Origin: a virus
Taxonomy: Duplodnaviria > Caudoviricetes
Virus record (IMG/VR): IMGVR_UViG_3300015214_000026
Coordinates: 32,001-96,000 of that record
Direction: 5' to 3' (one strand)
Length of the DNA: 64,000 nucleotides
Part shown: positions 15,546-32,162 of the stretch, one piece after another
How positions within the stretch are numbered: the first letter of the stretch is position 1
How the letters are laid out: the number at the start of each line of letters is the position of its first letter
Position numbers and translations under genes: made by a program
The notes under the pieces: model-generated
What the model was told of the DNA's origin: nothing
The model's database searches: none
Seen by the model: the letters and a program-made list of their open reading frames with translations, nothing else

Positions 15546-15568
15546 GGTGAGGGGTAGAACCCCTCACC
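15546..15568. terminator. hairpin, probable terminator or processing site
   Basis: GGTGAGGGG/CCCCTCACC. Confidence 0.65.
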
Positions 15569-15576
15569 ATTAAATT

Positions 15577-16155
15577 TTAATTAACTGATACAGAAAGGTT
15601 TTCAATCAAAACGCGAATAGAAGAAATGATTTGGTCTACGTGCTTGATTTGTTCATCAGTTTTACCTGATTCCATTTCAATACGGTTCTGTTTTTCCTGC
15701 ATCAATTTAGCATTCATTTGAGTAAGTTCGCCGATACGAGTTTCCAGAACCTTGATCTTATCAAGAATATCCTTAATCATAGCGGTATTAGTATCAATCT
15801 TATGATCGTATACCGATGAGATGCTTTCAATACGAACTTCATGTTCAGCAACGAGTTCTGCCTTACGCTTAAGGTAAGTAGCCAACTTATCCTTAGCTTC
15901 ATTACTTTCATTAGAAAGTAGGGCGGTGGGTAGAGCAGCATTTTTCTCCATGACTTTTGCAGTCGCCTCCTTGAGAGAAGCCCCCTTGTAGGCACCGAAA
16001 GGAAGAACTTTCTTTTCTTCGCTCGCGTTCTTTAGAAGTGTATTCATAAAGGTCTCCTTTTTATTAAAATCCTTACTAAGTTCTTGTTCAAGTTCCGCTG
16101 TCAAATTATCAAGCTTGTCAGCGACGTTATCAAAGTTGTTATTCAACATGTTCAT
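15577..16155 (-). CDS. coiled-coil protein
   Basis: long heptad pattern; AGGAGA RBS. Confidence 0.78.
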   Translation of the reverse strand: MNMLNNNFDNVADKLDNLTAELEQELSKDFNKKETFMNTLLKNASEEKKVLPFGAYKGASLKEATAKVMEKNAALPTALLSNESNEAKDKLATYLKRKAELVAEHEVRIESISSVYDHKIDTNTAMIKDILDKIKVLETRIGELTQMNAKLMQEKQNRIEMESGKTDEQIKHVDQIISSIRVLIENLSVSVN

Positions 16156-16170
16156 AATTCTCTCCTAAAC

Positions 16171-16291
16171 TGTCTCGATACACTTTATCATGTTTCATTA
16201 GACTGTCACGTCTCATTTAAAGCTTCCCTTGTTTCTATATTCTTGCATAACTCATTCAGTATCAATGATTCTGTTCTTCCATGTTAATTCA
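16171..16291 (-). repeat. TIGR-like dual-repeat array 2 (~3 units)
   Basis: alternating TGAATTA/AGAATCA/TGAGTTA/AGAAACA/TGAGACG/TGAAACA/CGAGACA motifs every 18-21 nt with unique spacers. Confidence 0.7.
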
Positions 16292-16300
16292 ATTACTATT

Positions 16301-16612
16301 TTATTCCGGCTCTTCTGGTTCTACATTAACCGGATATGCTTCTTCTAGAGATTCTTCGATAAGAAGCATAGCTTGATCTGCCGTTTCCTTTACCTGAATA
16401 TCTACCTTTCCTTCATTGAACTTAGGAAGAAAATCCGTGTTACCATAAATAAAACTAGTATGCTCATTATCTCCGGTTTTCTTGATTTTCGCTAGAGTAA
16501 CGAATTTACTAGTATCTGGCGTTTCTTCATCTATTAGGTTTGTAGGCGCGATAAAGAACAAATCGTTGAACATAAGAACCCATGTTCTAAATTTGAAATT
16601 CTCGTTTTTCAT
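16301..16612 (-). CDS. hypothetical protein between the Tas-like gene and array 2
   Basis: 103-aa ORF starting 1 nt after the Nop-domain gene stop. Confidence 0.75.
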   Translation of the reverse strand: MKNENFKFRTWVLMFNDLFFIAPTNLIDEETPDTSKFVTLAKIKKTGDNEHTSFIYGNTDFLPKFNEGKVDIQVKETADQAMLLIEESLEEAYPVNVEPEEPE

Positions 16613-27128: not shown

Positions 27129-27156
27129 AAAAGAGCGGGGTTAATAACCCCGCTCT
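27129..27156 (-). terminator. intrinsic terminator
   Basis: AGAGCGGGGTTA/TAACCCCGCTCT + U-tract. Confidence 0.8.
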
Positions 27157-27172
27157 AAATCGTCAGGGACGA

Positions 27173-28045
27173 TTAGTCATCGATATCGTCAATGTCATCG
27201 AGGCCGTCTTCATCGTCGTCCTCGTCCTCGTCCTCGTCTTCTTCATCCTCGTCTTCTTCTTCGTCCTCGTCCTCGTCCTCGTCTTCTTCTTCGTCCTTCT
27301 TGGACTTGCGCTTGGACTTGGCTTTCTTGTCCTTCTTCGACTTACGGGACGGCTTCTCGTCTTCCTCATCCTCGTCGTCTTCATCCGGTTCCTCGTCGGA
27401 ATTGAGGGCGACCAGAATGGCGGTGATCTGCTTGTTCTTGGACTTCACCTTGTCCGTGTCGATACCGAGTTCTTCGGCGAGTTCCGAAATATCGTCCTCG
27501 TCATGGAGCTTCAGTTTTGCCATCAGCGCCTTGTTGGCCGCGAGGAACATTCCGAGTTCTTCCGCCTTCTCGGCCCGCGTTTCCGCGTCCTCCGTCAGAA
27601 CGTCGGGATCGCCGCCCAGCTTCTTGACTTCCGGCTTCAGTTCACGAATGCCTCCCTCGACAGGCTCCCCTTCAAACTCGGAGAGGAAATCGTAGCAGTC
27701 ATCCAGAGTCGGTGTACCGTCGAACGGTTCCGGCTTCGAACGTTTCGACTTCTTCTCGGCCTTGTCCGCCTTGGCCTTGCGACCACGCTTCTTCGGTGCC
27801 TCGTCCTCGTCATCATCGTCCTTGGCCTTGCGACCACGCTTGGTCTTGACCTTTTCGGTCTTCTTGCCCTTCTTCACCTTATCGCGGCGCGAAGACGACG
27901 CCGTGGATTCCTCCAGATCGGAAAGGTCTTCCGAAGCGGAGAGTTCCACGATGGTCTCCAGCAGGGTCGCGACCGATCCCTGAAGCTTCTTGTTCATGCC
28001 GTCCACGATATCGAGAACGCGATCACGGTTGGAAATACGTGCCAT
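27173..28045 (-). CDS. highly charged early protein with KRGRKAK repeats and poly-D/E tail
   Basis: two KRGRKAK motifs, Lys patches, ~39-residue nearly pure acidic C-terminus; GC3-rich codons; own promoter and terminator. Confidence 0.85.
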   Translation of the reverse strand: MARISNRDRVLDIVDGMNKKLQGSVATLLETIVELSASEDLSDLEESTASSSRRDKVKKGKKTEKVKTKRGRKAKDDDDEDEAPKKRGRKAKADKAEKKSKRSKPEPFDGTPTLDDCYDFLSEFEGEPVEGGIRELKPEVKKLGGDPDVLTEDAETRAEKAEELGMFLAANKALMAKLKLHDEDDISELAEELGIDTDKVKSKNKQITAILVALNSDEEPDEDDEDEEDEKPSRKSKKDKKAKSKRKSKKDEEEDEDEDEDEEEDEDEEDEDEDEDDDEDGLDDIDDIDD

Positions 28046-31286: not shown

Positions 31287-32162
31287 ATGGCTTTTGTGGA
31301 CAAACTACTGGTTAAAGGCGACCGTGTTATTATGAATATGAACGAGGAATCTCGTGGCTGGGCTGGAGATAAGTATCCTCCTAATGGCACGCTCGGAACC
31401 TTTCTCGGTCGTCATCGTATCCAGATTTATCGTGGTCGTGTTGGCGTTGATCGGTATTTTTATGAACCCGGTATTTATGAAGCCGATGGGGCAGCTATAA
31501 TTGAATGGGATAACGGTTCTACTGCTGTTGACGGGTGGAGCCACGAAATGGCAGATAAAGAGGAATATAATAGACGATTCACAGCGTATCATGCGATTGA
31601 AAATAAGCCTAATGACTATGGTGAAAACGTGGTTCGAATTGGTGATCTTCCTGAAACCAAGTTTTGGGAGGGTGATATCGTCAAACGCGAATTTCATGAT
31701 TCAAGTGAACTTAACAGAATGCGGATTAGCTCCATTCAATGGCATTGGGATAAAGACGATCGCGGATGGTGTTACAACGTTGAATGGGTAAACGAGGATA
31801 ATACGTATGCTCGTCGTGGCTCTATGTATCTTCATGATTATGAGTTGGAGCTTATAGAACGAGGGAATGTGTGGCGTGAAGCGCACAACCAGCCTCTGTA
31901 TTTTAATAATTTCGAGGAAGAAGTCACTTTCGAACGTTTGGTGGGTAGATATGAGGAAGTTCGAAATCCAAAAAGTAAGCTCTATTCATGGACGAAGGAT
32001 GAAGTTCTTATTGCAATCAAAGATGGAATTGTAGATGGTTTCTCTATGCCAGAAGGATTGTTCGGCGGTGAGCGTAAAATTCAGACTCTTCGATTGAAGA
32101 ATCGAGAACTCGGTGAGAAGCTTCGTGAGTCAACCTTGAAAGGGTTTGGTATAGAAGCTTAA
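31287..32162 (+). CDS. hypothetical protein
   Basis: 291 aa, AAGGA RBS. Confidence 0.8.
   Translation: MAFVDKLLVKGDRVIMNMNEESRGWAGDKYPPNGTLGTFLGRHRIQIYRGRVGVDRYFYEPGIYEADGAAIIEWDNGSTAVDGWSHEMADKEEYNRRFTAYHAIENKPNDYGENVVRIGDLPETKFWEGDIVKREFHDSSELNRMRISSIQWHWDKDDRGWCYNVEWVNEDNTYARRGSMYLHDYELELIERGNVWREAHNQPLYFNNFEEEVTFERLVGRYEEVRNPKSKLYSWTKDEVLIAIKDGIVDGFSMPEGLFGGERKIQTLRLKNRELGEKLRESTLKGFGIEA

Follow-up and report, generated by a model that had tools for sequence, protein, structure and literature searches.

Two questions are raised by positions 16171 to 16612 of a Caudoviricetes phage genome: whether a short series of repeats behind a tas gene is a genuine guide array, and whether the small gene lying between tas and these repeats belongs to the same system. 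The window, to which coordinates refer unless they are given as genome positions, is the whole stretch of 64,000 nucleotides that was analyzed (positions 32,001 to 96,000 of IMG/VR record IMGVR_UViG_3300015214_000026). TIGR-Tas systems were reportedly first described in 2025. A preliminary description had read the locus as array-tas-orf-array and proposed the small gene as a partner or effector of Tas. The repeats (array 2) are probably a genuine, short and irregular three-unit dual-repeat TIGR array of TasA, one of three that are scattered in the genome, with the small gene (orf103) as no demonstrated component. The three small arrays sit in intergenic leaders of this ~170-kb phage.

Organization of array 2

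Array 2 (16171..16293, minus strand) comprises seven 9-nt repeats in the order E-L-E-L-E-L-E and six spacers, making up three dual-spacer guide units. The edge repeats are T-type: E1 ATTGAATTA (16293-16285), E2 AATGAGTTA (16256-16248), E3 AATGAGACG (16217-16209) and E4 ATCGAGACA (16179-16171). The loop repeats are of an A-rich type: L1 ACAGAATCA (16274-16266), L2 ATAGAAACA (16238-16230) and L3 AATGAAACA (16199-16191), all on the minus strand. The motif string reported earlier was correct, as were its coordinates, when read on the minus strand at 16171-16293. Two alternating repeat types with shared terminal box motifs and short spacers between them were present, and edge-type repeats stood at both ends, as in published arrays; 3 of the 7 repeats end in TTA or ACG, not in CA.

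Spacer lengths were 10 (A1), 9 (B1), 9 (A2), 12 (B2), 9 (A3) and 11 nt (B3), with no mutual relatedness among the six, and repeat-to-repeat spacing was 19, 18, 18, 21, 18 and 20 nt. The guide units measured ~37, ~39 and ~38 nt, not one fixed length of ~36 nt; the exact 9+9+9+9 unit of the preliminary description was present in the register B1-E2-A2-L2 only, and none of the guide units has that form. Spacers of up to 12 nt are allowed in published TIGR arrays, where their size is conserved within a locus; array 2 (9-12 nt) departs from one spacer size per locus.

The array occupies part of the 145-nt gap between orf103 (16301..16612, minus strand) and orf192 (15577..16155, minus strand). Its last edge-type repeat is followed by a Shine-Dalgarno sequence and the orf192 start, not directly by a terminator, and array 2 forms the orf192 5' leader. 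A coiled-coil gene had been claimed after the array, and the 192-aa product of orf192 (from the ORF list) is indeed coiled-coil-like; it had syntenic homologs in relatives at 36-49% identity, and a family search returned no match. Going downstream from array 2, the first element resembling a terminator was a GC-rich 10-bp palindromic hairpin (15546..15568, minus strand) after orf192; it was detected on the plus strand, its stem is palindromic, and its T tail is weak on the minus strand.

Genome-wide search for array repeats

Because the motif is weak, a 9-mer repeat matrix was trained solely on the arrays of two relatives, L015 and L007, and not on the repeats of the window itself (consensus A-N-N-G-A-A-N-C-A). 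Matches scoring 4 bits or more were chained, with 17-21 nt from one to the next, on both strands of the whole 170,266-bp genome. Three chains stood out genome-wide: one upstream of tas (17664-17838, 10 repeats), array 2 (7 repeats), and one on the plus strand at genome 28439-28519 (5 repeats). All other chains had at most 4 repeats (two chains of 4), and the longest chain in each of 40 block-shuffled genomes had 3-4. The L2 repeat occurs 7 times in the window (1.0 expected), with three copies flanking tas, and TGAGTTA-N10/11-AGAAACA was present in both arrays that flank tas.

Standard detectors were silent at array 2. Tandem Repeats Finder reported nothing there, which is consistent with a published statement that TIGR arrays go undetected by ordinary repeat finders; Rfam gave no match, and a lag-36 autocorrelation detector missed the array because its spacing is irregular. 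The sole false positives of the latter detector were long coding tracts for poly-Asp/Glu with Lys-rich tails behind them (window 27155-27350; genome 167824-168029), which mimic a 33- or 36-nt periodic array.

Additional arrays in the phage and its relatives

Array 1 (17646..17838, minus strand; 10-11 repeats) lies upstream of tas. Its start overlaps the stop codon of a 68-aa gene. At the other end, the tas Shine-Dalgarno serves as the final spacer, and the tas start codon falls within the final edge-like repeat, AATGACATG. It has spacers in common with the L011/L010 arrays upstream of tas and with the array at queC in L018. Adjacent to the tas cluster on its upstream side, a high-GC block (18010-18730; ~55-60% GC in a 37% GC phage) looks foreign and carries overlapping small ORFs of 124 aa (coiled-coil-like, with a weak Rz-like spanin match) and 73 aa.

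The third array is a mini-array of 6 repeats (a chain of 5, followed by a sixth) at genome 28439-28537 (L017:1440-1538, plus strand). It is located in the dnaB-queC gap, 20 kb from array 2 on the other strand and 3.5 kb before the window start; it keeps an exact 9+9+9+9 register, runs in the same direction as the genes on either side and extends up to the ribosome-binding site of queC. At the corresponding queC site of L018 (L018:2081-2500), 22 repeats were found. All three phage arrays terminate at the ribosome-binding site of a downstream gene, which, together with the use of the tas Shine-Dalgarno as a spacer, suggests that the arrays ride on ordinary mRNAs.

No nearby phage record was found in the GenBank phage collection by DNA or protein searches, and comparisons were made with related contigs. 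L015 (Tas 83% identical) has 34 repeats in near-perfect 18-nt register in the 619-nt gap upstream of tas, and L010, L011 and L012 (Tas 80% identical) have 16-20 repeats there (20 in L011). L007 (Tas 60% identical) has clean arrays on both sides of tas, in which AATGAATCA alternates with AAAGAAACA at 9-nt spacers, and L001 and L002 (Tas 46-49% identical) have canonical AGAGYACCA / AGCGAGCCA arrays. The earlier reading of a second array with the repeat grammar of array 1 was upheld: array 2 has this grammar and lies on the tas strand, and the window arrays share both grammar and orientation relative to tas with the arrays of orthologous tas genes, while the spacers differ.

The Tas protein

The tasA gene (16614..17648, minus strand) encodes a 344-aa Nop-domain protein that was characterized by phmmer, AlphaFold (AF2) and Foldseek. 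The best PDB match by phmmer was 9MTY_A (TaTasR, E 8.7e-15), the TaTasR structure of Faure et al. 2025 (PMC12045711), followed by TasH chains at E 2e-4. The AF2 model, built from 38 homologs, was all-helical (pLDDT 87), and its top 10 Foldseek matches in the PDB were all TasH/TasR complexes (probability 1.00), with IS621/ISCro4 recombinases next. Pfam gave Transposase_20 alone, as a weak match, and more than 2,300 homologs were found.

The TaTasR alignment begins at TasA residue 36 and TasR residue 123, so that ~35 residues precede the coiled coil in TasA. As this leaves ~35 N-terminal residues, and as HNH/RuvC or other nuclease families were not detected in Pfam and PHROGs, the product of 16614..17648 is, by sequence and predicted fold, a nuclease-less Tas protein of the TasA type. 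Its Nop domain and coiled coil are homologous in sequence and fold to those of TaTasR (PDB 9MTY) and SpTasH (PDB 9W03/9W04, 21KL), and the C-terminal GHVDYIPP of TasA resembles GHVDYIKPP of TaTasR. TasA differs from both in having no RuvC or HNH and in carrying a ~68-aa insertion.

The processing residue H296 of SpTasH corresponds to TasA H325, which is invariant in 38/38 relatives. The catalytic Tyr289 of SpTasH aligns with TasA F318 (codon at 16693-16695), 7 residues upstream of H325; of the 38 relatives, 22 have Y and 16 have F at this position, with F throughout the clade of the phage itself. With Phe at the catalytic Tyr position, self-processing by this TasA is not assured.

The ~68-aa insertion spans residues 135-202 (window 17043-17246). 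Members of the clade and L007 carry it, whereas homologs at 43-49% identity lack it, and it was modeled as helices with a few short strands, with no family match.

Divergence and turnover of array 2

Besides the window, L006 (Tas 98% identical) has array 2, which was missing in four related lineages that retain tas, orf103 and an orf192 homolog. The gap at the array 2 site in these lineages is 47 nt (L008, L010-L014), 14 nt (L015) or 45 nt (L009/L023). In the comparison of the window with L006, identity was 96-97.6% for the flanking genes, 97% for array 1 and 88.6% for the array 2 gap. Changed columns within array 2 numbered 3/63 in repeats vs 13/64 in spacers (Fisher p = 0.014), i.e. spacers changed ~4 times more than repeats, and spacer A3 was replaced, from 9 nt to 12 nt. 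Third-codon-position divergence nearby was 5-9%, so that the repeats change at about the local background and the spacers well above it. From these alignments, array 2 appears to have been gained, or retained, in the lineage of the window alone, and its spacers appear to evolve faster than the adjoining genes.

It had been noted that array 2 has different spacers; this holds for most of them, but 2 of the 6 are nearly duplicated in other arrays. In array 2, TGCAAGAAT is similar to TACAAGAAT of the tas-upstream array of L015, and TGACAGTCT to TGTCAGTCT of the third array of this phage; two or more near-copies of this kind occurred in 0.6% of shuffles (P = 0.006). One complete guide unit of array 1 (window 17691-17718), in which an ATAGAA-type loop lies between spacers TACGACTGA and AGAACTGTT, was also found in the array of the L018 queC leader (L018:2260-2290). 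Apparently, guide units either move from one array to another or are preserved by selection, and since spacers are partly common to several arrays, units seem to have been inherited and moved between sites, unlike CRISPR spacers, which are captured afresh.

These data bear on the reading of array 2 as a decaying TIGR derivative, a relic or misplaced copy that no longer supplies usable guides and now serves just as the orf192 5' leader. The irregular spacer lengths, the degenerate repeat ends, the fastest divergence in the region, the absence from four related lineages and the Phe in place of the catalytic Tyr equivalent all agree with decay, but changes have spared the repeats, which diverge at about the rate of the neighboring genes. 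All seven repeats and the edge-to-edge bracket are also kept in both alleles across several sludge and landfill samples (the L006-type allele was recovered in DNA contigs of four sludge and sediment runs), and L015, which likewise has Phe, retains a regular 34-repeat array. Decay was on these grounds judged rather unlikely, and array 2 is treated below as a genuine TIGR array.

orf103 and its association with Tas

The 103-aa ORF had been said to start 1 nt after the tas stop, and this was confirmed (TGA-A-ATG); its GAGGGA Shine-Dalgarno lies inside the tas 3' end. orf103 is a real gene under purifying selection, with 8 synonymous vs 2 non-synonymous codon changes relative to L006, and each contig of the clade (window, L006, L008-L015, L009/L023) has the orf103 start 1-5 nt past the tas stop. 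Identity in three other lineages was 62-68% for orf103 vs 78-83% for Tas. Among 5.8 billion proteins, homologs formed four clusters, all from one phage clade (Tas at least 77% identical). No family was found in PHROG or PADLOC, the ESM Atlas gave no usable match, and Pfam gave nothing at E <= 0.1 except a chance herpesvirus match, a ParB-like domain included. The AF2 model had a pLDDT of 58 and was too weak for a fold search. A complex prediction of TasA with orf103, both supplied as alignments, scored 0.00 and, having been run with no control runs, says nothing either way.

Conservation of the neighborhood had been proposed as a check on the link between orf103 and Tas. It held within one syntenic clade and did not extend to more distant Tas genes: orf103 was not beside those at 60% or 43-49% identity, where an array directly follows tas, and it was in none of ~80 other viral TasA loci. 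An operon of orf103 with tasA was sought across loci with differing flanks, and syntenic close relatives alone were found. As the linked cases are all close syntenic relatives, they count as a single observation. Nor does the array-tas-orf-array order itself mark a partner, given that four lineages have tas and orf103 with no array behind orf103. A natural deletion variant of an L015-type phage was also found (L016:1-905 vs L015:2437-5334), in which 1,983 bp were lost across a 10-nt microhomology; the deletion takes the whole upstream array and all of tas except its last 135 nt, and orf103 is kept intact.

The layout was further compared across 83 additional viral TasA loci, with arrays called by an autocorrelation test that gave zero false calls in 817 kb of shuffled sequence. 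Arrays were found in 57/83 loci and on both sides of tas in 13. In 5/57 loci (L033, L052, L056, L069, L071), tas was separated from an array with matching grammar by a same-strand ORF of at least 100 aa. ORFs beginning at the tas stop in those loci were unrelated to orf103 and to each other. Enclosure by arrays is thus a known and fairly common layout and by itself no marker of a system component.

orf103 could be a lineage-specific partner or effector of TasA, translated in coupling with tas and recruited to TasA-bound DNA. Its tight coupling to tas in every member of the clade and its purifying selection speak for this, as does the published precedent of tasParB, a TasA partner encoded in an operon whose genes have arrays on their flanks and between them. 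The tasParB-tasA operons (Faure et al. 2025, methods, fig. S14) are the published form of array-tas-gene-array and share this layout; tasParB, however, recurs in operons with varying flanks, whereas orf103 encodes 103 aa, is confined to one clade and has no ParB-like or other domain. The restricted distribution, with no copy at Tas loci of 60% identity or less, the lower conservation relative to Tas, the retention of orf103 after loss of the array and most of tas in L016, and the mutual unrelatedness of tas-coupled small ORFs at other loci all weigh against a partner role, which was considered distinctly unlikely. The earlier suggestion that array enclosure makes orf103 a partner or effector was not supported, given the clade-only homologs, the absence beside distant Tas genes and the unrelated genes enclosed in 5/57 loci. 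orf103 is a clade-specific phage gene that probably just happens to lie between tas and array 2.

Assessment of non-array explanations

The predicted minimum free energy of array 2 RNA was -13.8 kcal/mol vs -16.3 for shuffles (z = +0.86), indicating no stable fold, and palindromic stems flanking each spacer pair, as in stem-loop arrays, were not found. An unfolded RNA fits dual-repeat arrays and argues against a stem-loop type or a structured leader. That array 2 is no guide array at all, and instead a chance periodicity in AT-rich DNA, a promoter/operator cluster or a structured orf192 leader, was already disfavored and is extremely improbable: the motif is low in information, Tandem Repeats Finder is silent and weak sigma-70-like matches occur inside the array, but those matches are at chance level, the RNA has no stable fold, the chain of 7 exceeds the shuffle maximum of 3-4, the motifs cluster at three sites and so are no genome-wide promoter elements, and the grammar is shared with arrays adjoining orthologous tas genes.

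Target searches and proposed mechanism

Self-targets were searched in the 170-kb genome with both spacer geometries at up to 4 mismatches, and matches were no better than those of shuffled spacers. No target with 2 or fewer mismatches was found in ~0.9 Mb of the other loci analyzed. When six patterns were searched in a 174-kb relative (G001), one match with 2 mismatches, both mid-spacer, was obtained for unit 2 read as spacer B plus the reverse complement of spacer A. This candidate target (G001:C1:148298-148315; L103:1501-1518, minus strand) lies inside a 169-aa phrog_17451 gene, whose homolog in the phage itself (genome 21883-22389, 82% identical) has 8 mismatches at the site. Further relatives of this gene were not found in viral or metagenome contigs. 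A match as good as this one arises by chance in ~5% of six-pattern tests, and in more when the other searches are counted; the unit 2 match is accordingly a lead only, borderline vs chance.

Array 2 as a genuine TIGR array would be transcribed together with the co-oriented tas, orf103 and orf192 genes. TasA dimers would recognize the ...GA...CA motifs common to edge and loop repeats, and the transcript would be cut inside the edge repeats to yield RNAs of ~37-39 nt, each with two spacers that may pair with opposite DNA strands. The complex would bind and block its target rather than cut it, because TasA has no nuclease. Published work describes Tas proteins as processing arrays and binding 36-nt guides (PMC12045711), and TasA as repressing transcription (bioRxiv 10.64898/2026.09.09.750476). 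Given the published self-processing of Tas, it can fairly be inferred, as the preliminary description did, that array processing would also cut the mRNA between genes.

Comparison with published systems

The closest published counterparts are the dual-repeat TIGR-TasA loci (FpTasA of Flavonifractor plautii and phage loci; PMC12045711), which likewise have a solo Nop-domain Tas and are phage-borne. They share with this locus two alternating short repeats, ~9-nt spacers, arrays up- and downstream of tas, and an expected mode of binding or repression with no nuclease. They differ in usually having 5-15 units, whereas the phage arrays here have 3-5 (three in array 2), and in one spacer size per locus, whereas array 2 is irregular (9-12 nt). 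Here, moreover, tas and the array are separated by a protein gene, and a gene, not a terminator, follows the array. The survey of Xu et al. (bioRxiv 10.64898/2026.09.09.750476) covered 10-kb flanks, and the third array here, 20 kb away, falls outside that range.

Stem-loop TIGR arrays (PlTasA, BlTasA, MbTasA) also have dual spacers bracketed by box C/D-like motifs, and their flexible positions, even inside genes, are a likeness to the arrays described here. Their units are flanked by palindromic stems, whereas array 2 has none and folds no better than shuffles; the TasA of this phage retains the long C-terminal loop that is characteristic of dual-repeat binders, unlike the stem-loop TIGR type.

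Implications

The locus belongs to a kind published in 2025-2026 and is nothing new in kind. A further reading takes array 2 as a recent, fast-turnover mini-array, made of units that move among the tas, orf192 and queC leaders, with guides aimed at rival relatives. We regard this as unlikely; if true, the clade would be a natural series for the gain, movement and loss of TIGR arrays, and the targeting of rivals would supply a rare natural TasA target.

What the locus does provide is a comparison set: orthologous tas genes with arrays ranging from 34 repeats down to a handful, an array that one lineage has and four lack, units common to arrays at different genomic sites, and a natural tas deletion variant. 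It also carries a warning, in that the position of a gene between tas and an array is no evidence of membership in the system. Arrays are scattered among unrelated phage genes in ~1/10 of viral TasA loci.
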